Source: Bacilli bacterium (GTDB lineage: Bacteria; Bacillota_I; Bacilli_A; RFN20; CAG-826). Taken from it: DNA of 64,000 nucleotides. A program made the translations under genes and the position numbers. The notes under the pieces are model-generated. The model saw only the letters and a list, made by a program, of their open reading frames with translations, had not been told where the DNA came from and made no database searches. Where the stretch lies: positions 752,108-816,107 of the forward strand of contig JBMNLN010000001.1 of the NCBI GenBank assembly GCA_050952725.1. The letters are read 5' to 3'. This document shows, piece after piece, positions 3,225 to 28,875 of the stretch (the first letter of the stretch is position 1; each line of letters begins with the position of its first letter).

Positions 3225-4661
3225 ATGGGAAAACAAATTAAAAATGAAGCGATTACCGCGCGCGAGGTCGATTTCGCCCAGTGGTATACCGATGTCTGTC
3301 GCAAAGCGGAATTGATGGATTATTCTTCCGTCAAAGGCTTTATTATCTATCGTCCTTATGGCTATGCGCTCTGGGAGCAAATCCAAAGTTATCTCGATGC
3401 GCGTTTTAAGGAAACGGGTCACCAAAATGTCTATTTACCATTGGTGATTCCGTCTTCGCTTTTCCAAAAGGAAAAAGATCACGTTGCCGGTTTTGCCCCG
3501 GAAACATTAATCGCGACAATTGGGGGCGATAAGGAAATCGATGATCCATTGATCATCCGTCCGACTAGCGAAGTGCTCTTTTGCGAACATTTTGCTAAAA
3601 TCGTCAATTCTTATCGCGATTTACCGCTTCTTTACAACCAATGGTGTTCCGTGGTTCGCTGGGAGAAGACCACCCGTCCTTTCTTGCGCGGTTCCGAATT
3701 CTTGTGGCAAGAAGGTCATACTCTGCACGCTAGTGAAGTCGAAGCCCGACATGAAACCTTACAGATGTTAGAAATCTATAAAGAGATGGGGAAAGAACTC
3801 CTAGCGATTCCCTTTGTCACCGGGATTAAAACCGAAAAAGAAAAATTCGCTGGGGCAATCAACACCTATACGATCGAAGCCTTAATGCATGATGGCAAAG
3901 CCTTACAAAGTGGGACAACTCACTATTTTGGCACCGGCTTTGCGGAAGCTTTTAATATCACCTTCCAAGATAGAGATAATTTAGTGAAAAATCCCCATCA
4001 ATCCTCGTGGGGGGTTTCCACGCGTCTTATCGGCGCGGTCATCATGGTCCACGGGGATGATAATGGTTTAGTCTTGCCGCCCCGTGTGGCGCCAACTCAA
4101 ATCGTCATCGTCCCGATTCAAAGTCAAAAAGAAGGGGTCTTGTCAAAGGCGGAACATTACTTAAAGCGCTTAAAACAAGCGGGATATCGGGTCAAACTCG
4201 ATAACAGCGATGCCAGTCCAGGTTGGAAATTTGCCGAATATGAGATGAAAGGTGTCCCTCTGCGCATCGAAGTGGGACCGCGCGATTTAAACAATGGGGT
4301 CTTTACTATTTCTCGACGTGTTGATGGCAAGAAAAATATCGTTCCGGATCATAGTCTCGAAGATGTGGTCAGCGAACAATTAGATGAGATTCATGAATTA
4401 ATGTACGCAAAAGCCTATCAATTTTTCCATGAGCGCCTGAGCGAAGCGACTTCATTTGCCCAAATTGGCAAGGCCTTGGATGAAAAACCTGGCTATGTAA
4501 AAATTATGTGGTGTGGCGATCAAGCATGTCTCGATAAAGTCAAAGAAGAATTTCAAGCTACGGCTCGGTGTCTCCCTTTTGAACAAATCGCGATTAGCGA
4601 CACTTGTGCGGTCTGTGGAAAGAAAGGACTCCATCTAGTCTATCTTGCCCGCGCTTATTAA
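3225..4661 (+). CDS. proS: Prolyl-tRNA synthetase, archaeal/eukaryotic-type class II enzyme with a C-terminal Zn-binding domain.
   Basis: The 478 aa product has class II motifs and an anticodon-binding region. It ends with a CxxC...CxxC tail (MWCGDQACL...CAVCGKK) typical of archaeal-type ProRS. An RBS (AAGGGGAAAG) lies upstream. Confidence 0.9.
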   Translation: MGKQIKNEAITAREVDFAQWYTDVCRKAELMDYSSVKGFIIYRPYGYALWEQIQSYLDARFKETGHQNVYLPLVIPSSLFQKEKDHVAGFAPETLIATIGGDKEIDDPLIIRPTSEVLFCEHFAKIVNSYRDLPLLYNQWCSVVRWEKTTRPFLRGSEFLWQEGHTLHASEVEARHETLQMLEIYKEMGKELLAIPFVTGIKTEKEKFAGAINTYTIEALMHDGKALQSGTTHYFGTGFAEAFNITFQDRDNLVKNPHQSSWGVSTRLIGAVIMVHGDDNGLVLPPRVAPTQIVIVPIQSQKEGVLSKAEHYLKRLKQAGYRVKLDNSDASPGWKFAEYEMKGVPLRIEVGPRDLNNGVFTISRRVDGKKNIVPDHSLEDVVSEQLDEIHELMYAKAYQFFHERLSEATSFAQIGKALDEKPGYVKIMWCGDQACLDKVKEEFQATARCLPFEQIAISDTCAVCGKKGLHLVYLARAY

Positions 4662-4730
4662 AGGAGAAGAAGTCGCTACTTGTTATCATTGAAGAAAAAA
4701 CTTCTTTTATGTTATGATAAGTGGCGAATC

Positions 4731-4821
4731 GGAGTAGTACCCAAGTTGGTGAAGGGGCCTCCCTGCTAAGGAGGTAGGTCGGGTAACTGGCGCCAGAGTT
4801 CGAGTCTCTGCTACTCCGCCA
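4731..4821 (+). tRNA. tRNA-Ser (anticodon GCT).
   Basis: GGAGTAGTACCCAAGTTGGTGAAGGGGCCTCCCTGCTAAGGAGG...CTACTCCGCCA has a long variable arm. The anticodon loop is CTGCTAA. Confidence 0.9.
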
Positions 4822-4832
4822 TTGAGCAAATT

Positions 4833-4868
4833 AAGGATTGATTCACAATAATCAATCCTTTTTCTTTC
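4833..4868 (+). terminator. Rho-independent terminator after tRNA-Ser(GCT).
   Basis: Hairpin AAGGATTGATTcacaatAATCAATCCTT is followed by a TTTCTTTC tail. Confidence 0.5.
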
Positions 4869-4957
4869 GCGAAAATCAGAACTTTTCCCGTGGATATTTT
4901 CAATATCCAATTGATAGTTTAAAATAAAAAATAGGAACGATATTTTGGAGAATCACC

Positions 4958-18244: not shown

Positions 18245-18319
18245 GGTTCCTTAGCCAAGTTGGTAAGGCAACTGACTGCAACTCAGTGACCGCCGGTTCA
18301 AATCCGGCAGGAACCTCCA
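18245..18319 (+). tRNA. tRNA-Cys (anticodon GCA).
   Basis: GGTTCCTTAGCCAAGTTGGTAAGGCAACTGACTGCAACTCAGTGACCGCCGGTTCAAATCCGGCAGGAACCTCCA. The anticodon loop is CTGCAAC. Confidence 0.9.
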
Positions 18320-18475
18320 ACGATAGGATTTGAACTTGATTGAGTTAAATATAAGAAGGCGTCTTTTTTAAACTAATTAATTGATTTTTATTAATGTTGA
18401 TTAATGAATTAAGGCTCTACTCGTAAAACTCTTGATTTTTTTTAGTTTTTCGAGTAGGATTTGTTTAAGGAAAAT

Positions 18476-19693
18476 ATGATGATAAAAAGAGACTATTATT
18501 TGAATAAACTCATATACTACAAAGATAAAGATTTAATTAAGGTAATAACTGGTATCAGAAGGGTTGGAAAATCTTTTTTGCTTTTTAATTTGTATTATGA
18601 TTACTTAATTAAATCAGGAATTAATCAATCCAATATTATAAAAATAAATCTTGAATCAGATAAAATGAAAACTTTAAGAGACCCAGTAGAATTGTCTAAA
18701 TATGTTAATTCTAAAATTAATAGTAATGATAAATATTATTTATTGATTGATGAAATTCAACATGTTAATGATTTTGAAGATGTGATTAATGGGCTAAGAG
18801 TGGATCTTAATGTTGATATCTATTTGACTGGTTCGAATTCGAAACTACTCTCTAGTGATATTAACACTAAGTTAAGAGGAAGAAGTATTGAAATTAAATT
18901 ATATCCGTTATCTTTTTTTGAGTATCACAATTATTATCAAGGAGATCTTGATGATGATTTCAAGGAATATCTTTTATATGGGGGATTACCATATTTAATC
19001 AATGAAGATGATAGCAATGGGAAAATAGCATATCTAAAGATGATTAATGAAACTGTAGTGATAAAAGATATAGTAGAAAGACATAAGATTAGAAACCCGC
19101 ATTTTTTTAATGCTGTATATGAGTTTTTGTGTTCAAATATCGGTTCATATGTCAGTGCTTATAAAATCGCTAACACATTAAAAAGCAATGGCTATAAAAC
19201 TATAACCAGTGATACTGTCAGCAATTACTTAGAGTTTTTAACTAATGCTTATTTGTTTTACAAAGTAAATCGCTATGATGTTAAAGGAAAAGCATATTTA
19301 AAAACTCAAAATAAGTATTATGCATCAGATATTGGGATGCGAAATGCCAAGATTAATTATCGGCAACTAGAAATAACCCATACATTGGAAAACATTATTT
19401 ATTTAGAACTCTTAAGAAGAGGTTACATTGTTGATATTGGGAAAAATTATAATAGTGAAATTGATTTTATCGCGAAAAATAAGCAAGATACTTATTATCT
19501 TCAAGTCAGTTACACAATAAATGACCCTAATATAAAAGAGCGCGAACTAAAAGCCTTTAAAAATTTAGCGGATGGTTATAAGAAAATTGTTTTAACAATG
19601 GATAAAGATCCATATCTTCATTTAGAAAATGGATATAAAAAGGTTAATATAATTGACTTTTTATTAAAAGAAGACATTTTAGAATTGATATAA
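18476..19693 (+). CDS. AAA_14/DUF4143-family ATPase (archaeal-ATPase-like ATP-binding protein).
   Basis: It has a Walker A motif (GIRRVGKSFLL) and a Walker B motif (YLLIDEIQ). The arrangement ...LTGSNSKLL... with a C-terminal DUF4143-like region is typical of this family. The true ATG is at 18476; the track start at 18461 is TTG. Confidence 0.6.
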   Translation: MMIKRDYYLNKLIYYKDKDLIKVITGIRRVGKSFLLFNLYYDYLIKSGINQSNIIKINLESDKMKTLRDPVELSKYVNSKINSNDKYYLLIDEIQHVNDFEDVINGLRVDLNVDIYLTGSNSKLLSSDINTKLRGRSIEIKLYPLSFFEYHNYYQGDLDDDFKEYLLYGGLPYLINEDDSNGKIAYLKMINETVVIKDIVERHKIRNPHFFNAVYEFLCSNIGSYVSAYKIANTLKSNGYKTITSDTVSNYLEFLTNAYLFYKVNRYDVKGKAYLKTQNKYYASDIGMRNAKINYRQLEITHTLENIIYLELLRRGYIVDIGKNYNSEIDFIAKNKQDTYYLQVSYTINDPNIKERELKAFKNLADGYKKIVLTMDKDPYLHLENGYKKVNIIDFLLKEDILELI

Positions 19694-20150
19694 ATTAAAA
19701 ATATTAAACAAAATTCCAATTAATTGCCAAAAAGTTCAATAGAAGTAGTTTTTCATTTTAAATTCTTCCATATTTGATTTCATTAAACATTTTTCGCGTC
19801 TGAGCTTTCATTCCCTAGGTATTAAGCACATCACAATCTGCTTTATTAATTGAGAATGAGATTTTAGGATAAGTGGTTAAATCTAATTTATCTTCAATGA
19901 TTCCTTTTTCCACGACAGACTTTGATGGTGGCTTTCATGGTATTTGCACAAAATTACATCAAATGTTTCTGGGTTTTGTGCTAGTTAAGCATGGTAGTGT
20001 CTCCTTTCTCAGTGTACTTACTAGAATTGTAGACTGCCTTTTTTGTTTGTTACCTACAAATGTGAAACGGTATCAGAAAAAATATTGAAATTATTTTTAT
20101 ACTTTTTGTGATAACATTTTGGTATAAGACAAAAGCAAAGGTGTTTGTTT

Positions 20151-21032
20151 ATGATTAAAAGAGTAGTCGATTTTACTGGTAATCAAACAATAAGATTTAT
20201 TAAAGAATTGTATGAATGCTTTGATACTGGTTATGCATTTGAGGATTTTGTAAAGGTTTATTTAGAATTCTTGGGGTTTGATGAAGTTGTAGTTACGCAA
20301 AGAGCAAAGGATGGTGGTATTGATTTAACAGCAATCAAAATTGGTATTGGAGGGCTTTCTTCCGAAAAAGGAAAAATAAACTACGAGCCAGATAAAGTAA
20401 TCTATCGAATTCAAGCCAAAAGATATAAACCAACAGGTAAAAAGATACCAATAGATGATATTCGAAAATTTAGAGGGGCAGCAGGATTTAAAAGCGGGCA
20501 AAAAGGGATATTTATAACAACTGGTAAATTTACTTCTGATGCAATTAAAGAAGCTAATGCGAAGCCAGAACAACCCATTATTTTAATTGATGGAGAAACC
20601 TTGATTAAAAGCATGCTAGATTTAAATTTAGGTTTTGTATTTATTCCAGAATTTAAGAAGGAGTTAATCAATAATTTATTGCAAAAAAAGAATATTATTT
20701 TATCAACATCGGAATATGGAAGTGAAAAAAGAAGAGACAATTTTATATCTGTTGATAAACTAATTAGTCTAAACGATATTAGGGCAAGAATAATTGGCGT
20801 TCCTCAAGAAATAATCAATGCTTTAGATGATGACTTTGATAAAATCGAAATTCAAATGGGAGATTTATCCACTAAGGAGTATAGCTACAATAAAAATCGC
20901 AAATATATTGCAGGTGTGACAAAATTCTTTAAAAAATACGGATTGATTGATGATGCTAATGTTTATCATCCTAAAAAAGTTAATTGGATGAAAGAAGGTT
21001 CAAATATCAAGATAACTATTTTAGAAGAATAA
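20151..21032 (+). CDS. Mrr-like (Mrr_cat) restriction endonuclease domain protein.
   Basis: FEDFVKVYLEFLGF ... QRAKDGGIDLTA ... IQAKRYK ... GIFITTGKFTSDA ... IILIDGETL matches the Mrr catalytic-domain pattern (D...(D/E)xK, QxK). The ATG is at 20151 with an AAGGTG RBS. Confidence 0.6.
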   Translation: MIKRVVDFTGNQTIRFIKELYECFDTGYAFEDFVKVYLEFLGFDEVVVTQRAKDGGIDLTAIKIGIGGLSSEKGKINYEPDKVIYRIQAKRYKPTGKKIPIDDIRKFRGAAGFKSGQKGIFITTGKFTSDAIKEANAKPEQPIILIDGETLIKSMLDLNLGFVFIPEFKKELINNLLQKKNIILSTSEYGSEKRRDNFISVDKLISLNDIRARIIGVPQEIINALDDDFDKIEIQMGDLSTKEYSYNKNRKYIAGVTKFFKKYGLIDDANVYHPKKVNWMKEGSNIKITILEE

Positions 21033-21907
21033 GTTTTCTGTAAAGGGTTTGTAAAAATATTACCTTAAAATAACTTCAGCAAATAGAATGATACAATTGA
21101 AGATGTTTATATATCACATGAAAACAATTTAGATAAATTGCTGATTCATGAAGTTTTTAGGCAAATTTCGATTAGGATTTTCAAATGTATCTACTCACAA
21201 ATAGCAAAATGCCGCTTAATTATAATGGCAATTATTCAAAGATACGCAAATGTCATTTATAATATCGACAAATATTGAGGATATGAATTTTTTGAGGTTG
21301 ATGTTTAAAAAGACAACTTTTAACAGAAAAACGTAATATTTTTTGGTCACGACTTGGTTCTAAAATAAAGAAGATTAGTCGTCTAAAGCATTGAATACTT
21401 TCGGAATTATAATCATATTTCCAAACTGGGAAAAGAAATCTTAAAAATTATAAAGAACGGTCGTTATGTCTTGAGTTGTTTGTCTATGCTCACATGAGAA
21501 ACTGAGCGCGATAAACCAGATAGTCTATAAAAAATGCAATTGGTGCAAAAATGGGCCACAATGAAATAAAAGGACTCTATATTCAAAAAGTCGAAATCGT
21601 TTTAAAAAATAACCCAATCTTAACCACAGCCATTTTAGACAATAATATTTGGTAAAAACAATACATAGGCAGGAAAGAAATCGGCTTTCCGCGGCTATCC
21701 AATGTTTTTTAAAGAGACATGATACATTTTCATTGGCTGTAAACCAGTATTTTTTGTATTATAAAGTTATAATTTCAATTTATTGGTTCAAATAAGATAG
21801 GGAAGTATGATTTTGTAAGAAATAAAACATATTATTCAGTTATCCGTGCAATCTAAAAACATACATAAGACTTGCATTTATTAAAAGCAAAGAAATGGAG
21901 GAATATT

Positions 21908-24199
21908 ATGACCACGTGGGATGAGTTAGTTTCAGGTGAAGAACTAGATAAAGTTTCCAAATCGAGAAGAATAAAATATAAAGAGATAAAAGTTGAAAAA
22001 GAATCAATTGCTGAGCACGAAAAAAAAGGTTGGAAAATATTTCGAAGATATAAAGATGGCTCTGCTAAAATGCGAGCCCCAAAAGAGATTGGCGATGCCT
22101 TCGAAGATGAAGTATGGACGATTTTTTATGATATGGGCTTTGAGATTATGAACAAGTCTAATGGTTTCAAATTGTCTTATTCTAAAGGAAATCCAGATTT
22201 AACTAAGCAAATCGATGTTATAGCCATTGATGACGAAGTAATACTATTAGTTGAATGTAAAGCTGCTGATAAGCCAGATACAACAGGAAATTGGAAAAAA
22301 GAACTAGAGTCCATACAAGGCTTTTTTCCGGGTTTGTGCAAAGAAATAAGACAAAAATATAAGAACAGAAAAGTAAAATATATACTAGCTACTAAGAATT
22401 ACCTTATAGGTGAGCAAGATAACAAAAGAATGGAAGAATTCAAAATCGCCAATTTTAACCATGAAGTGGTAACGTATTATGCGGAACTTGTGAAACATCT
22501 AGGCTCTGCCGCTAGATATCAGCTTCTAGGTAATCTATTTGCTAAACAACGCGTTGAAAACATGATAAAAAAAATTCCTGCTATTGAAGGAAGAATGGGG
22601 GGCTTGAAATATTATACATTTTTGATTGAGCCTGAAAAACTTTTAAAAATCTCCTACATTTTACATCGAAGCAAAGCAAATCATAAAATGATGCCAACTT
22701 ATCAAAGGTTGATCAAAAAGGATAGATTAAAGGCAATACGAAAATTTGTTAATGAGGGAGGATATTTTCCAAATTCGATAATTGTATCTATTGATACTGT
22801 TAGAAAAGAGCCAAGATTCGAGTTATTAACTTCCAAATTAGATAACAACAATAATTCGCGAGCGGGTTATCTATATTTGCCAGGGTTTTATCAATCGGTT
22901 TATATAATTGATGGTCAGCATAGGCTATATGGATATTCGGATACTAAATATGCAAACAATAATACAATTCCTGTGGTTGCGTTTTTAAATTTGAGCAAAA
23001 ATGAACAAGTTAAATTGTTTATGGACATTAATCAAAATCAAAAATCCGTTTCGAAGAGTCTCAGAAACACACTCAATGTCGATCTTTTATGGGATTCTGA
23101 AGATGCAAACGAAAGAAAGTTAGCCTTAATGTTAGGGCTTGCTCAATCATTGGGTGAAGATCCAACTTCTCCATTGTTTCAAAGAATTATCACAGGAGAG
23201 GATAAAATTACAGAAAAAAGATGTATTACAATCGATTATATTAAAGAAGCCGTTGCAAATTCATCTTTTTTAAATATTTACAAAAAGGGAAAAAATGAAA
23301 TAATTCAACACGGCACCTTCGATAAAGATGATAATGACAGAACATTAGACTTTCTACTTTCATTTTTAAAAAAAAGTTTAAAACTAATGTCTGAATTCCT
23401 ACAAGAGGAATGGGAAAAGGGAAGTTCTGGATATATAACTATTAATAACACGATGTATGGAATCATTAAAATCATTGATGACATCGTAAATATGACTTTG
23501 AAAAAAGAAAAAAAACAAATTGTTGATAACGCAGATGAGTTCTATAAAAAGTGTGAGCCATTACTTTATAAATTTATAGAAACACTATCATCTCTTGATT
23601 CTGATTCAGTTAAGACAATCAAGGAAGCCAAAGGCGGTGCTGCTAAGAAAATATCTTGGCGCACACTACAAGTTGCGTTTTACAAAAAAGAACCTTGTTT
23701 TACCAACCCTGAATTAGAGCAATATATAATCGAAAATTGCACTGATAATAACCCAGATGCTTCTGAGTATTTATTTCAGATTGAGATGTACTTGAAGGGG
23801 CATTTTAAAGAACAACTAGAAAAAAATAATGACTGGATGAACAATATGATACCTGAATCGTTGACCAATCAACTAATATCCAAAAAAGCAATTGAAGAAA
23901 ATAATAGAAAAAAAATGGATAATTATACAGAAGTAGATGTTTGGGATTTTATTTCCTTTGATGAAATCAAACAGATTGCGACTTATAAAACAAATTGGTC
24001 GGATTTTTGCTCGACAATATTATCTTCTTCAAAAATCAAATCCACTAAAGTTGATGCGATTACATGGCTAAGTTCCTTCTCGAGATACAAATCCAAAATC
24101 ACGACAGAAAAGAATATTTTAACAAGCGAACTAAAGGATATTCGTGATATTTATAATATGTTTTTCTTAAATCAGATTGGAGATGAGAAAAAAACATGA
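21908..24199 (+). CDS. DGQHR-domain (DndB-like, ParB/Srx fold) protein fused to an N-terminal PD-(D/E)xK nuclease-like domain.
   Basis: The YIIDGQHRLYGYSD motif sits in a ParB-like region (FPNSIIVSID...). The N-terminal segment IDVIAIDDEVILLVECKAADK looks like a PD-(D/E)xK motif. A GGAGG RBS lies 7 nt upstream of the ATG at 21908. The stop overlaps the MTase start. Confidence 0.65.
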   Translation: MTTWDELVSGEELDKVSKSRRIKYKEIKVEKESIAEHEKKGWKIFRRYKDGSAKMRAPKEIGDAFEDEVWTIFYDMGFEIMNKSNGFKLSYSKGNPDLTKQIDVIAIDDEVILLVECKAADKPDTTGNWKKELESIQGFFPGLCKEIRQKYKNRKVKYILATKNYLIGEQDNKRMEEFKIANFNHEVVTYYAELVKHLGSAARYQLLGNLFAKQRVENMIKKIPAIEGRMGGLKYYTFLIEPEKLLKISYILHRSKANHKMMPTYQRLIKKDRLKAIRKFVNEGGYFPNSIIVSIDTVRKEPRFELLTSKLDNNNNSRAGYLYLPGFYQSVYIIDGQHRLYGYSDTKYANNNTIPVVAFLNLSKNEQVKLFMDINQNQKSVSKSLRNTLNVDLLWDSEDANERKLALMLGLAQSLGEDPTSPLFQRIITGEDKITEKRCITIDYIKEAVANSSFLNIYKKGKNEIIQHGTFDKDDNDRTLDFLLSFLKKSLKLMSEFLQEEWEKGSSGYITINNTMYGIIKIIDDIVNMTLKKEKKQIVDNADEFYKKCEPLLYKFIETLSSLDSDSVKTIKEAKGGAAKKISWRTLQVAFYKKEPCFTNPELEQYIIENCTDNNPDASEYLFQIEMYLKGHFKEQLEKNNDWMNNMIPESLTNQLISKKAIEENNRKKMDNYTEVDVWDFISFDEIKQIATYKTNWSDFCSTILSSSKIKSTKVDAITWLSSFSRYKSKITTEKNILTSELKDIRDIYNMFFLNQIGDEKKT

Positions 24200-25035
24200 A
24201 ACCTGTTTTAAAATGGGCAGGAGGAAAAAGATTACTAATTCCAGAAATTGCTAAATACATAAATAAACAAAAAATGGAAGAAAAAGGTCATCGATATTTT
24301 GAGCCTTTTGTCGGTGGTGGTGCTGTTTGTTTTCATTTAAAAATAAAAGATTCAGTGATAAATGACATTAATACGGAATTAATAAATGTATACACACAAA
24401 TTAGAGATAATCCAACAGAATTAATTAAAAAATTGAAAGAACACAAAAATAAATACAGTTCTGAATATTATGAAAAGATTAGAGTTTTGGACAGAGAACC
24501 TGACTTTTCCTCAAAACCTGCCGTATTAAGAGCGGCAAGATTTATCTTTTTAAATAAAACCTGTTATAACGGATTATATAGAGTTAATTCATTCGGACAT
24601 TTTAATGTTCCTGAAGGTAAATATAAAAATCCTGATATCGTTTCGGAAAACAATATAAAAAAACTTAGCAAATTTTTAAATGAAAAAAATATCTCTATCA
24701 GAAATGTTGATTTTGAAGAGAGTGTAAGAGATGCAAAGGCGGGCGATGTTGTCTATTTTGATCCTCCTTATGACTATGAATATGAAGGTTTTAATGGATA
24801 TAATGTTGATGCTTTTGATCGAGAAAATTTAAAGAGATTAAAACGAGTCGCGGACGATTTAACTAATCGTGGATGCAAAGTTATTATTAGTAATAACAAT
24901 ACTAAGTTTGTCAATGACTTGTTTGACTCAGAAAATTATACAATTGAATATGTGGAAGCCAATAGATTTATTAATTGTGACGGTAAAGGAAGAAAGAAAG
25001 TAAGAGAGGTTATTATTTATGGAGAAAAAAAATAA
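24196..25035 (+). CDS. Dam-family (D12 class) DNA N6-adenine methyltransferase.
   Basis: LKWAGGKRLL (motif X), FEPFVGGGAV (motif I) and YFDPPYD (motif IV, DPPY) are present. There is an ATGA overlap with the upstream gene. Confidence 0.8.
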   Translation: MKPVLKWAGGKRLLIPEIAKYINKQKMEEKGHRYFEPFVGGGAVCFHLKIKDSVINDINTELINVYTQIRDNPTELIKKLKEHKNKYSSEYYEKIRVLDREPDFSSKPAVLRAARFIFLNKTCYNGLYRVNSFGHFNVPEGKYKNPDIVSENNIKKLSKFLNEKNISIRNVDFEESVRDAKAGDVVYFDPPYDYEYEGFNGYNVDAFDRENLKRLKRVADDLTNRGCKVIISNNNTKFVNDLFDSENYTIEYVEANRFINCDGKGRKKVREVIIYGEKK

Positions 25036-25477
25036 AATTCCCTTTCCACAGGCTAATGATTTTGAAAAAGTCATCATGATATTAAATATTAATAATGAGG
25101 CCAATTTGAAAAAAAAATCTGTTATTTCAATGATTTTGGGAGATGTTGAATATAGACAAGTACAATATTACGTTTCTGCGTTAATATATTTGGGATTAGC
25201 AACAAAAGAAAAAACTTTTTCTGAAAAAGGGAAATATATTCGGACACTAGGTTATTCGGAGCAAATAATAGAGTTAGCAAAGCTTATTGTTTCAAAAGAT
25301 GTGTTTGGCACAGCCTATTTTACGGAACAATTTTTAAAAATTAAACTTGATGTTGATGATGTTGTCCAAATAATGAAAATATATGTTGACTTTGATAGTA
25401 ATTCAACATACAAGCGCCGAGCCCAAACCGTAATAAGTTGGTTAGAGTGGATTAATAATAAAAAGAAAGATTTATGA
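25019..25477 (+). CDS. Hypothetical small protein of 152 aa in the island.
   Basis: The ORF overlaps the MTase 3' end by 17 nt and is AT-rich. No motif is recognised. Confidence 0.35.
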   Translation: MEKKNKIPFPQANDFEKVIMILNINNEANLKKKSVISMILGDVEYRQVQYYVSALIYLGLATKEKTFSEKGKYIRTLGYSEQIIELAKLIVSKDVFGTAYFTEQFLKIKLDVDDVVQIMKIYVDFDSNSTYKRRAQTVISWLEWINNKKKDL

Positions 25478-25602
25478 ATTAATTTCTTAATCATTTTTTG
25501 AAAAAAGAAATTTTATTCTTTGGTGACACTAAGAAAAGAGTTGGTAATCCATTTATTATCTTGAAAAAGTCGCCTCCAAGTTATATATTGTATAAGCGTG
25601 TT

Positions 25603-25679
25603 GCGCCGATAGCTCAACTGGATAGAGTGCCAGACTACGAATCTGGAGGTTGCGAGTTCGATTCTTGCTCGGCGCGCCA
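25603..25679 (+). tRNA. tRNA-Arg (anticodon ACG).
   Basis: GCGCCGATAGCTCAACTGGATAGAGTGCCAGACTACGAATCTGG...TCGGCGCGCCA. Confidence 0.9.
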
Positions 25680-25689
25680 TGACTTTTTC

Positions 25690-25765
<76 letters not shown>

Positions 25766-25820
25766 TGATTGTTCTCAACCTTTCCCCTTGATCTTATCCT
25801 AATATCAAATGGGAATTCTC

Positions 25821-25896
25821 GGGGCCATAGTTCAGTTGGGAGAACGCCTGCTTTGCAAGCAGGAGGTCAGGGGTTCGAGCCCCCTTGGCTCCACCA
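25821..25896 (+). tRNA. tRNA-Ala (anticodon TGC).
   Basis: GGGGCCATAGTTCAGTTGGGAGAACGCCTGCTTTGCAAGCAGG...GGCTCCACCA, with a G3:U70-type acceptor. Confidence 0.9.
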
Positions 25897-25903
25897 GTAA
25901 GAT

Positions 25904-25978
25904 GGCTGTGTAGCTCAGCGGTAGAGCGTCCGGTTCATACCCGGCAGGTCGGCGGTTCAAATCCGCCCGCAGCTACCA
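25904..25978 (+). tRNA. tRNA-Met, elongator (anticodon CAT).
   Basis: GGCTGTGTAGCTCAGCGGTAGAGCGTCCGGTTCATACCCGG... closely resembles Bacillus elongator tRNA-Met. Confidence 0.8.
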
Positions 25979-26079
25979 TGGAAACGAAATAGTCGCTGTT
26001 GATCCAGTGACTTTTTTGTTGCTTAGGGTAGGTATTTGTTTAAATAAATATCTATTTAATGTATTATATTTATGCTTGT

Positions 26080-26155
26080 GGACCCTTAGCTCAATGGTTA
26101 GAGCGACCGGCTCATAACCGGTTGGTTTCGGGTTCAAGTCCTGAAGGGTCCACCA
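26080..26155 (+). tRNA. tRNA-Ile2 (CAT anticodon, lysidine-type), less likely Met.
   Basis: GGACCCTTAGCTCAATGGTTAGAGCGACCGGCTCATAACCGG...AGGGTCCACCA resembles ileX-type tRNA-Ile(LAU), which reads GGCCCCTTAGCTCAGTGGTTAGAGC...CTCATAA.... Confidence 0.7.
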
Positions 26156-26162
26156 TGCTTTT

Positions 26163-26253
26163 GGAAGCATACCCAAGTGGTTGAAGGGGTCGGTCTTGAA
26201 AACCGATAGGGGGTGTGAGCCCTGCTAGAGTTCGAATCTCTATGCTTCCGCCA
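26163..26253 (+). tRNA. tRNA-Ser (anticodon TGA).
   Basis: GGAAGCATACCCAAGTGGTTGAAGGGGTCGGTCTTGAAAACCGA... has a long variable arm. Confidence 0.9.
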
Positions 26254-27037: not shown

Positions 27038-27066
27038 AATGGGCCTTGAGCCCATTTTTCTTTTTC
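27038..27066 (+). terminator. Rho-independent terminator after tRNA-His.
   Basis: AATGGGCcttgaGCCCATT is followed by TTTCTTTTT. Confidence 0.5.
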
Positions 27067-27367
27067 TAACCCTGGATGGTTTTGGACTATTTTTCATGAT
27101 TTCTCTTGCAAAACTTTGCCACACAAAACCATACTCCCTTACCATATGAAGGTGGGCTCTACTGTAAAATTAATTATTGCGAATATGTGTTGTATTTTTC
27201 AAATTGAAACATCAATTAAAATTTGAAAATGAAATAGCAGCACAATTTATTTTCTTAATTAGTTGATCAAATTCTCTGTCCCATTAAACGCATTGAAAAA
27301 GTTTATTGTAAATAATTATGCTCCTTAAAATTGGACGAAAAATTGGCGATATATTTAGGGAGCATTT

Positions 27368-28462
27368 TCAATCAGGGATGGCTTTCTCTGCCCATTCATA
27401 TCTTGCGCGATGATGGCTTTGATCCCTAGGTATTTTTTTATCTTTCATTAAACGGCTATAGACGATTGATGGTAAAACCTCGGCTTCTTGGGCCAACATC
27501 GCCATTGTCTGATCATTTATTTCATAGTTGCTGATATATTTTTGGTATATTTCGGGATTAATTAAAGTATCCTCAGCAAATTTATTCGCTCTTTTTTCAA
27601 ATTTCTTGCTGGTTTCTTCATCGAGATCATTCTGTAAGTAATCGCCAAAGATGATGTGACCAATTTCATGAAATAATGTAAACCAGAAAATATCGACAAA
27701 TTTATGTCTAAGCGTTAAGGCAATTAAGGGATTATCAGTCATGGTCTTCACGGTTAAACCATTAATTGGGGCTTTTTCAACATGTTTTTTTACGGTGAAA
27801 TAGACGCCGCAACTGTTCAATTCTTCTTGGATTAACCTGATGATTTTCTCCGGTTCTGCAAACATGATTCTTTTAATGTTCGGCAATCTCTTTTTAAGTC
27901 TTTCAAGGTCGAGAGCGGCTACATTTTGCGCATAGACTTCTTGCTCACATAAATATTGCCAAGTATACATGACAAGATGACTGGTTCCTTTGGCGAATTG
28001 GCGTCGATAAAGACCTTGATTGGCTAATTTTGTATGACTAATAGCAGTTAAGTTATTTACCCCCAGGATTTTTCGGAGTTCGTAAATAATTTCATCATAG
28101 AGTTTATCGCCAAATTTTTCTCCCGTAATATCCGCGACTGGTTTTTTAATTTCCCGTGCTATTTCGTGTTCTTCATCGCTGATTTGTTGACTTTGTTTCA
28201 GATAAAAAAGCTCTTTATCATAATTAGCTTGTAAGTTAATCCAAAAAGTATCACTACTATTTAAAGCGATTGCTAATTTTTGCGCAAATTCGTTGGTGAT
28301 ATTGCTCTTGCCGTTAATCACACTGGAAATATGTTTTTCGGTGACCGCAGCCCGAGTCGCTAATTCTTTTTGCGAATAGCCGCGTTCCGCGATGATTTCT
28401 GCTAAGATTTCTCCGGGATGAATTAACAAGTCAAGGGATGTATGTCGTCGTTTTTCCACCAT
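27368..28462 (-). CDS. higA: HigA-like antitoxin: an XRE-family HTH domain fused to an ImmA/IrrE-family (M78) zinc metallopeptidase domain.
   Basis: The N-terminal HTH is ...GYSQKELATRAAVTEKHISSVINGK.... The C-terminal HExxH motif is FTLFHEIGHIIFGD. It overlaps the upstream higB-like gene by 32 nt. Confidence 0.65.
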   Translation of the reverse strand: MVEKRRHTSLDLLIHPGEILAEIIAERGYSQKELATRAAVTEKHISSVINGKSNITNEFAQKLAIALNSSDTFWINLQANYDKELFYLKQSQQISDEEHEIAREIKKPVADITGEKFGDKLYDEIIYELRKILGVNNLTAISHTKLANQGLYRRQFAKGTSHLVMYTWQYLCEQEVYAQNVAALDLERLKKRLPNIKRIMFAEPEKIIRLIQEELNSCGVYFTVKKHVEKAPINGLTVKTMTDNPLIALTLRHKFVDIFWFTLFHEIGHIIFGDYLQNDLDEETSKKFEKRANKFAEDTLINPEIYQKYISNYEINDQTMAMLAQEAEVLPSIVYSRLMKDKKIPRDQSHHRARYEWAEKAIPD

Positions 28463-28784
28463 GGTAATCTTCCACTCCTTTGATAATTACTTTGTCACAT
28501 TGAGCGAAAGCGATAAGGCTTACGTCTCCATTTTCCGTCATTGGTTGTAGGATTAATCTTTTGTTCTTGTCGACACTAACCGCGAATAATCCTTTTTTAT
28601 CGCCTTTTAATGCATGAGGATTCCCCGGGGCTATTTTTAGGAATTCCGCAAAACTGATTGCTGCTTTGAGCACATCATATCTCATTTTTATTCTTCGCGT
28701 TATTTCAATGCCCTTTTTTCTCTTCATTAATTCAAAGTTTTCAAATAATAATGCTACTCTTCTATCATCATAGACGATTTCCAC
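28431..28784 (-). CDS. higB: HigB-like (RelE/ParE superfamily) toxin.
   Basis: ...IAPGNPHALKGDKKGLFAVSVDKNKRLILQP...VIIKGVEDYH matches the HigB killer-protein consensus (PGN..E.LKGDRKG...R.I.......I..V.DYH). The GTG start has a GAAGG RBS. Gene order is toxin first, then antitoxin. Confidence 0.65.
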   Translation of the reverse strand: MEIVYDDRRVALLFENFELMKRKKGIEITRRIKMRYDVLKAAISFAEFLKIAPGNPHALKGDKKGLFAVSVDKNKRLILQPMTENGDVSLIAFAQCDKVIIKGVEDYHGGKTTTYIP

Positions 28785-28797
28785 GTCGGCCTTCTTT

Positions 28798-28875
28798 CTT
28801 ACCGATTTGGTAACTGCCTATATTATAACGCAATTAGTGAATATTTAAAGAAAAAAGTTACCGATTTGGTAACTG
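28798..28875. promoter_or_regulatory. Two copies, 59 bp apart, of a palindromic operator-like element cTTACCgatttGGTAActg in the higBA promoter region, divergent from the Na/Pi transporter gene.
   Basis: Exact 18-19 bp direct repeats lie at 28798-28816 and 28857-28875. Each contains the inverted repeat GTTACC-N5-GGTAAC. They are located 14-90 bp upstream of the higB start. Confidence 0.5.

Follow-up and report, generated by a model that had tools for sequence, protein, structure and literature searches.

A probable HigBA-type toxin-antitoxin operon whose HigA carries an M78 metallopeptidase domain

Operons in which a HigB- or RelE-like gene accompanies an XRE-type helix-turn-helix (HTH) protein fused to a zinc peptidase are not a new architecture: they were predicted by Makarova, Wolf and Koonin (2009, PMC2701414) and later found experimentally in the form of PD-lambda-2 (Vassallo et al. 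2022, PMC9519451). Among the partners of RelE and PIN toxins, the former authors named COG2856, 'Zn peptidase (fused to HTH)'; they proposed a more complex toxin-antitoxin (TA) circuit and asked for experiments. Their Xre-COG2856 class, which is expanded in Firmicutes, was defined by comparative genomics alone and is heterogeneous. Here we describe a further case of this known class, a two-gene operon at positions 27368-28784, minus strand, of a 64-kb window (the whole 64,000-nt stretch of DNA that was analysed) from the genome of a Bacilli bacterium (contig JBMNLN010000001.1). The first gene encodes a HigB-like protein of 117 aa, which we call the toxin, and the second a 364-aa protein, which we call the antitoxin or long HigA, with an N-terminal HigA-type HTH and a C-terminal M78 (ImmA/IrrE-type) peptidase domain. 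Very probably, this is a TA module of the HigBA type in which HigA is fused to an M78 domain.

PD-lambda-2 from Escherichia coli ECOR42 is an anti-phage system of three proteins: A is HigB-like (PF09907), B joins a HigA HTH to a peptidase (PF06114), and C is P4 beta-like (PF14350). PD-lambda-2B is toxic alone and is rescued by A, and C is required for defence (PMC9519451). RosmerTA (RmrT/RmrA) is an anti-phage TA system whose antitoxin consists of a small N-terminal HTH and an ImmA-type protease domain, and in which the toxin gene often comes first (PMC10440598). The peptidases ImmA, IrrE and CapP cleave XRE repressors upon a signal (PMC2701414, PMC10440598). The literature that we searched offers no mechanism for modules of HigB with a HigA-peptidase, and nothing on them later than Makarova et al. 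(2009) and Vassallo et al. (2022).

The release of type II toxins has long been disputed among those who study TA systems, and this class gives a way in; PD-lambda-2, a validated anti-phage member of it, has puzzling toxicity data. The architecture itself will not surprise a specialist, for whom the real question is the role of the peptidase and which of the two proteins is toxic. As far as the literature searched shows, what goes beyond earlier work is the size and coherence of the clade to which our locus belongs, the placement of the antitoxin start codon inside the catalytic motif of the toxin, and the shared operator.

Two overlapping genes and their products

The toxin gene (28431-28784, GTG start) comes first and the antitoxin gene (27368-28462, ATG start) second, both on the minus strand, and the two open reading frames (ORFs) overlap by exactly 32 nt (28431-28462, minus strand). 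Gene order, overlap and protein lengths all agree with the initial annotation, which had been made from the sequence of the window, and the motifs quoted there (APGNPHALKGDKKG and EDYH for the toxin, FHEIGHIIF for the antitoxin) are present in the ORFs to which they had been assigned. The overlap is dual-coding, with the toxin tail GGKTTTYIP and its stop codon read from the same DNA as the antitoxin N-terminus MVEKRRHTSLD. The ATG of the antitoxin (28460-28462) is built from the His108 codon of the toxin, CAT, and the G of the codon that follows. Its predicted Shine-Dalgarno sequence, GGAG (28475-28478, minus strand), lies 12 nt 5' of this ATG within the conserved K-G-V codons of the toxin and is encoded by the conserved Gly-Val. 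On this reading of the two frames, the catalytic C-terminus of the predicted toxin and the putative translation-initiation region of the antitoxin are one and the same DNA. A candidate Shine-Dalgarno sequence for the toxin itself, GAAGG (28790-28794, minus strand), can be read 5 nt upstream of its GTG.

From sequence alone, the identity of the toxin is borderline. In the single NCBI record examined, the protein bears just the name 'hypothetical protein', and it matches PHROG 3066, 'toxin of TA system', at 3.2e-7. Structural modelling gives a clearer picture. An AlphaFold (AF2) model built on an 80-sequence alignment reached a predicted local distance difference test score (pLDDT) of 96.1, and the best match to this model in a Foldseek search of the PDB was the HigB of Proteus vulgaris (template modelling score normalised to the target, 0.69-0.77; 24-27% identity), with YoeB, RelE and YafQ ranking behind it. 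By this model the toxin has the HigB/RelE fold. In the sequence alignment, H57 (28614-28616), R76 (28557-28559) and D106-Y107-H108 (28461-28469, all minus strand) align to H54, R73 and D90-Y91-H92 of P. vulgaris HigB and are the equivalents of its catalytic residues; the P. vulgaris sequence used here agrees with the PDB alignment over residues 29-87. Among 67 distinct toxins from homologous loci, Y107 and H108 are present in all, R76 in 66 and D106 in 64. Position 57 is more variable: it is His in 40 toxins and Glu in the other 27 (~40%), which read G-H-P-E-P-L instead of G-K-P-H-x-L. In the G-H-P-E-P-L toxins the His equivalent to HigB H54 sits two residues earlier, and this sequence variant may represent an alternative active-site arrangement.

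The extra length of the toxin had been ascribed in the initial annotation to an N-terminal extension of about 20 aa. This claim is refuted, as PHROG 3066 aligns residues 5-86 to profile positions 5-83, and the alignments with P. vulgaris HigB and with a 98-aa phage HigB described below both start at residue 1; proteins of the subfamily normally have 105-123 aa. The ~25 aa by which the protein exceeds a typical HigB consist instead of an internal insertion of ~13 aa (about residues 83-97), in which Cys96 is conserved, and of a tail of 9 aa (residues 109-117) that follows DYH and forms an extra beta-strand in the model.

The long HigA is the better-defined of the two proteins, and the proposed fusion of an XRE HTH to an ImmA-like M78 domain with an intact HExxH is borne out by profiles. 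Its scores against Pfam HTH_3 (40.6 bits) and Peptidase_M78 (31.2 bits) both exceed the gathering scores, and it scores 59.7 bits against the NCBIfam HigA equivalog TIGR02607 (cut-off 47.7). The AF2 model, from a 120-sequence alignment, has a pLDDT of 90.5 and a predicted template modelling score (pTM) of 0.84. Residues 14-82 (28217-28423, minus strand) form the HigA-type HTH, which is delimited by TIGR02607, matches HigA chains of the PDB at 2e-9 and superposes in Foldseek on the HigA proteins of P. vulgaris, Coxiella, E. coli and Pseudomonas at 0.9-2 Å; for P. vulgaris HigA the root-mean-square deviation (rmsd) is 0.9-1.2 Å, with chain 9chn_C at 0.9 Å. It is followed by a helical middle region without family assignment (residues ~83-195; 27878-28216, minus strand), which we place from the AF2 secondary structure and the coverage of the PADLOC profile PD-Lambda-2_B. 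A lower-confidence loop at ~141-160 within this region carries the nearly invariant R153. The M78 metallopeptidase domain occupies residues ~196-345 (27428-27877, minus strand), with PF06114 matching residues 260-338. Foldseek pairs this C-terminal part with PprI/IrrE (8sln, 3dti, 3dte) and with CapP (7t5t), the protease of a cyclic-oligonucleotide-based anti-phage signalling system (CBASS). The HEIGH motif (residues 265-269; 27656-27670, minus strand) lies within FHEIGHIIF, and E289 (27596-27598, minus strand) is the putative third zinc ligand. Neither the solved structures nor BFVD yielded a match to the antitoxin as a whole. Its match to PD-Lambda-2_B is strong, at 6.6e-30, and pairs residues 24-342 with profile positions 68-377 of 402.

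The peptidase site is well preserved in the family. Of 83 distinct antitoxin homologues, which share 32-60% identity, 81 retain H265-E266-x-x-H269...E289, and D257, W260 and E266 are invariant in all 83. The two exceptions are a clade of three loci (L004-L006) that reads YEIGQ and a single locus that reads REISF. The toxins beside these motif-lost antitoxins appear intact: in L004 the five catalytic positions are unchanged, and at the REISF locus the DYH tail is intact. These observations bear on the possibility that the M78 domain is catalytically irrelevant and serves as a scaffold for dimerisation or toxin binding, with the antitoxin being degraded by Lon or Clp as in classical type II modules. 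Because the lineages that lost the motif keep the toxin, catalysis would appear to be unneeded for neutralisation, as such a scaffold would predict. The conservation of HExxH...E across so wide a range of identities, together with the invariance of D257, W260 and E266, points instead to purifying selection on the active site, and a purely structural role for the domain seems to us very improbable. In the L004-L006 clade (4001-4936, P0045) and in P0036, the antitoxin is also shortened at its C-terminus, to 304-311 aa, and stands beside an intact toxin (P0003). The L004-L006 module is followed by a 238-aa ORF and then by an AAA ATPase and Peptidase_S8 pair.

A co-inherited module with a shared operator

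A toxin profile built from five close homologues and searched against 1.84 billion proteins recovered 964 cluster representatives at E<=1e-3, 148 of them at E<=1e-10, nearly all of 105-123 aa. One match, P0268, is a 2585-aa protein with 10 separate toxin-like stretches, either a giant repeat protein or an artefact of assembly or gene calling. Relatives of the long HigA are encoded in at least 573 species genomes in a scan of one genome per species. Their hosts are mostly Clostridia, Bacilli and Mollicutes, with scattered occurrences in Treponema, Synergistales, Succinivibrionaceae, Bacteroidaceae and Cloacimonadota, and the clade includes gut and rumen taxa.

The two genes travel together. Of 86 loci examined, 74 have an ORF that fits the toxin profile immediately upstream of the long HigA, and in all 74 the toxin stop falls exactly 10 nt before the HPG codon of the antitoxin. 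The junction of CAT and G that holds the antitoxin ATG is present in every one of 69 distinct loci, where the overlap is 32 nt (55 loci) or 35 nt (14 loci); this geometry is fixed because the ATG is built from the His108 CAT of the toxin and the next G. Most of these loci also have GGAG or GGGG at the same spot (judged by eye, uncounted), and some have GGAA, GGGA or GGAC. The genes that flank the module, by contrast, are wholly different between loci. An all-against-all comparison of the downstream ORFs of 80 loci revealed no conserved downstream gene, and only three near-identical Blautia loci share one. By this comparison of gene neighbourhoods, the pair is a widespread and co-inherited module.

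Not all members are complete. In a locus from Lachnospiraceae (L003, 3723-4038), the toxin is broken into fragments of 43 aa and 58 aa and the antitoxin is intact. Both genes are decayed in a locus from Erysipelotrichaceae (L047, 3718-5110), in which the DYH of the toxin has become YYY and the antitoxin is frameshifted. About nine further loci (L041, L045, L064, L077, L078, L086, L053, L081, L084) encode an orphan long HigA-M78 protein with intact HExxH and no HigB-like ORF upstream; these orphans have shorter N-termini, starting near the HPG motif. Given such clear cases of decay among its homologues, our locus might itself be a silent or decaying remnant that lacks a current function. Against this, both of its ORFs are intact, and the catalytic and DNA-binding motifs, a promoter, both operators and both ribosome-binding sites are all present, which makes a remnant extremely improbable.

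A related arrangement is found in a gut phage, NatCom_20922 (PV036430.1, 29280-29576; L087, 2141-2437), where an unannotated 98-aa ORF encodes a canonical HigB ending in DYH. It lies upstream of a 351-aa HigA-M78 'transcriptional regulator' with 29% identity to ours, and the two genes do not overlap. The insertion of the phage pair separates the gene for the terminase large subunit from the portal gene, and in place of the HigB the record annotates two 49-aa hypothetical proteins in other frames.

Upstream of the toxin, a consensus scan found a promoter-like site at 28822-28849 on the minus strand, with a -35 box TTTAAA (28844-28849), a 16-nt spacer and a -10 box TATAAT (28822-28827), matching 10 of 12 positions. 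This call is a pattern match only, and it is supported by the position of the site between two operator-like repeats. The first repeat, O1 (TTACCGATTTGGTAACTG, 28858-28875), is a palindrome, GTTACC-N5-GGTAAC, immediately upstream of the -35 box; the second, O2 (28799-28816), is the identical 18-mer between the -10 box and the toxin ribosome-binding site. The two copies are 59 bp apart and are the only TTACC-N5-GGTAA sites in the window.

The palindrome is not peculiar to this locus. Of 63 distinct homologous loci, 49 carry a site of the class TTACC-N5-GGTAA or TTAACC-N4-GGTTAA within 160 nt upstream of the toxin, in most cases 28-55 nt ahead of the start codon. There are 56 such sites upstream of toxins and one in the remaining 476 kb of the same loci, or 5.56/kb as against 0.0021/kb, a ~2,600-fold enrichment. 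This is strong comparative evidence that the palindrome is an operator, and we infer that it is bound by the HTH of the long HigA. The repeats were also considered as terminators, since a pattern scan flags O1 as terminator-like, and this was rejected: the palindrome class clusters before toxin starts and occurs almost nowhere else. Because the palindrome sits 28-55 nt before the toxin in most loci, an operator is the better reading.

The conserved operator invites another interpretation of the locus, in which the long HigA mainly switches transcription in response to a signal, as ImmR/ImmA, DdrO/IrrE and CapH/CapP do, but within one protein; it would control its own operon and perhaps other genes, with HigB as regulated cargo. 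Both the structural match of the M78 domain to PprI/IrrE and CapP and the palindromes at the promoter fit such a switch, and Makarova et al. raised Xre-COG2856 associations as generic regulators (PMC2701414). The two operator sites at this promoter are, however, the sole ones in the window, and no mobile element, CBASS or repair regulon adjoins the operon. Moreover, the tight co-inheritance and the dual-coding overlap with HigB indicate a self-contained pair. We therefore consider a switch of this kind unlikely.

Proposed working of the module and the roles of its two proteins

The initial annotation had read the locus as a type II TA pair, and in this it is supported by the modelled HigB fold, co-inheritance, translational overlap and the conserved operator palindrome; the labels of toxin and antitoxin were assigned from sequence and structural models only. 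On balance, a chromosomal two-gene type II TA operon of the HigBA kind, probably acquired horizontally and working as set out below, is our moderately favoured explanation. The first gene (28431-28784) would encode a ribosome-dependent mRNA endonuclease of the HigB type, which would be neutralised by the N-terminal HigA HTH part of the long HigA. A dimer of the long HigA would bind the two TTACC-N5-GGTAA palindromes that bracket the promoter and so auto-repress the operon. Translation of the antitoxin would be hard-wired to the toxin gene through the Shine-Dalgarno sequence and ATG inside the KGV.DYH|G codons.

The most likely use of the M78 peptidase, by analogy with ImmA/ImmR, IrrE/DdrO and CapP/CapH, would be as a built-in trigger. 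A cue, which could be phage infection, DNA damage or single-stranded DNA, would cause the antitoxin to undergo self-cleavage, either in cis or, between the partners of the dimer, in trans; cleavage would derepress the operon and free HigB; and the freed HigB would arrest translation in an abortive-infection-like response, probably as a defence against phage. That the peptidase works as a self-cleaving trigger is a tentative proposal, and the stress sensing that the initial annotation had raised beside self-cleavage is likewise hypothetical. In its fullest form, it describes a self-triggering TA module whose antitoxin has its own signal-activated protease and releases the toxin independently of Lon or Clp. 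Here each long HigA would cleave its own chain or that of its partner in the dimer, with the flexible conserved loop near R153 as one conceivable site, and the ribosome-binding site and ATG of the antitoxin inside DYH|G would form a genetic interlock against the loss or lone expression of either gene. This form is possible and, we think, rather doubtful. A role in defence is suggested by analogy, as the closest profile, PD-Lambda-2_B, comes from a validated anti-phage system and an island resembling restriction/modification loci, described below, lies 2 kb off.

Several observations weigh against this overall explanation. The initial annotation had proposed that profiles for HigB, HTH_3 and Peptidase_M78 be scanned, and the two antitoxin domains were recovered above their cut-offs, as reported above, whereas the toxin scored 18.1 bits (E=0.0038) against PF05015 (HigB-like_toxin), below the gathering cut-off of 27. 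The toxin also has no NCBIfam match and no PADLOC match at E<=1. Its insertion and 9-aa tail have no counterpart in characterised HigB proteins and could alter ribosome binding. The association of the defence-like island with the operon is one of proximity only, and the tRNA array and a NUDIX gene intervene. The sequence yields no cleavage site, trigger or substrate for the peptidase. Finally, in PD-lambda-2 it is the HigA-peptidase that is toxic alone and the HigB-like protein that rescues (PMC9519451), the opposite of classical roles.

This last point deserves consideration, as the roles might be reversed here too: the HigA-M78 fusion would be the toxic component, for example as a free protease or repressor that damages the cell, and the HigB-like protein its neutraliser or sensor. 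In addition to the PD-lambda-2 toxicity data, the match of the long HigA to PD-Lambda-2_B extends over almost its full length. The partner protein at our locus, however, is PF05015-like and thus from another HigB family than PD-lambda-2A (PF09907), and its R76, Y107 and H108 are essentially invariant in the homologues, which would be unexpected for a mere neutraliser. In the Lachnospiraceae locus with the broken toxin and in the nine or so orphans, which have no HigB-like ORF upstream, the peptidase-HigA is still intact, and therefore the fusion alone appears to be tolerated. Two lineages that lack HExxH nevertheless retain an intact-looking toxin. Moreover, stand-alone COG2856 proteins are non-toxic in Streptococcus pneumoniae or E. 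coli (PMC4257102). Reversed roles are accordingly quite improbable. The constraint on the RNase residues, the HigB-less loci with intact peptidase-HigA and the peptidase-dead antitoxins beside intact-looking toxins all favour classical roles, in which HigB would be the toxic partner, and we regard these as likely.

Whichever way the peptidase acts, the clade is simple (two genes and no third component) and large, being present in those 573 or more species genomes, mostly of Bacillota. Its handles include a defined operator, an active-site motif, natural peptidase-dead variants and natural orphan antitoxins. These would make the module a convenient model in which to ask if a trigger protease can be part of the antitoxin itself.

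Genomic surroundings and comparison with known systems

The neighbours of the operon are a tRNA array, the NUDIX gene and a Na/Pi cotransporter. The operon has a G+C content of 37%, compared with 44-45% in its flanks, and there is no second copy of the module within the window. A search of the operon and its flanks against Rfam at E<=1 found no structured RNA, returning tRNA-His and sub-threshold noise only. A pattern scan weakly indicates a terminator-like hairpin at 27038-27056, ~310 nt 3' of the antitoxin stop and abutting tRNA-His, which is a possible terminator of the operon. The AT-rich DNA of ~310 nt between the antitoxin stop and this hairpin (27057-27367) has no Rfam match and no listed ORF of at least 40 aa, except a 46-aa ORF that overlaps tRNA-His.

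A low-GC island (18320-25480; 29.3% G+C, where the window as a whole has 42%) is found about 2 kb from the operon, with tRNA-Cys (18245-18319) on one side and an array of six tRNAs (25603-26253) on the other. Its genes code for an AAA_14/DUF4143 ATPase (18461-19693), an Mrr_cat restriction endonuclease (20145-21032), a DndB/DpdB-like DGQHR protein of 775 aa (21872-24199), a D12 Dam-type methyltransferase (24196-25035) and a DUF7226 protein (25019-25477), which aligns with the C-terminal end of a PADLOC profile for type II restriction endonucleases. By its predicted gene content, the island looks like a defence island of the restriction/modification type.

Among known systems, HigBA of the P. 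vulgaris plasmid Rts1 shares with our locus the toxin-first order, the HigB fold with equivalents of H54, R73 and D90-Y91-H92, a HigA HTH that superposes at an rmsd of ~1 Å, and two operators at the promoter, which are predicted here. It differs in its antitoxin of ~104 aa, to which ours, at 364 aa, adds the helical region and the M78 peptidase, and in a toxin that lacks the ~13-aa insertion and the 9-aa tail after the catalytic His; our toxin, moreover, has a sub-threshold Pfam HigB score. ImmR/ImmA of ICEBs1, DdrO/IrrE of Deinococcus and CapH/CapP of CBASS likewise combine an M78 metallopeptidase with an XRE HTH repressor, and the folds of PprI/IrrE and CapP match that of our M78 domain. In those systems, however, peptidase and repressor are made as two proteins, and what they control is a mobile element, a repair regulon or CBASS, whereas here the domains are fused in one ORF and the controlled gene would be a HigB toxin. 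In RosmerTA, the RmrT toxins are diverse and often membrane-active, and none matches the 117-aa protein in PADLOC; several RmrA profiles match the antitoxin at 1.2e-11 to 3e-4, over partial stretches and far more weakly than PD-Lambda-2_B.

PD-lambda-2 has the same order of a HigB-like gene followed by a HigA HTH fused to a C-terminal ImmA/IrrE (PF06114) peptidase. By contrast with that system, which is from Enterobacteria, ours is from Bacillota, and its toxin is PF05015-like, with no match to PD-Lambda-2_A or PF09907 at E<=1. A third component like PD-lambda-2C was sought and rejected: there is none in the window, no PF14350 in the six neighbouring proteins scanned, and none conserved across the 80 loci. 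With another HigB family and no C gene, the locus is therefore not PD-lambda-2 by that system's definition. It has in common with the class of Makarova et al. (2009) an Xre HTH and a COG2856 HExxH peptidase in one polypeptide beside a gene of the RelE superfamily, and is set apart within it by belonging to a single coherent clade, whose members share an operator and an overlap fixed at 32/35 nt. It is a relative with two genes in the class that Makarova et al. predicted.

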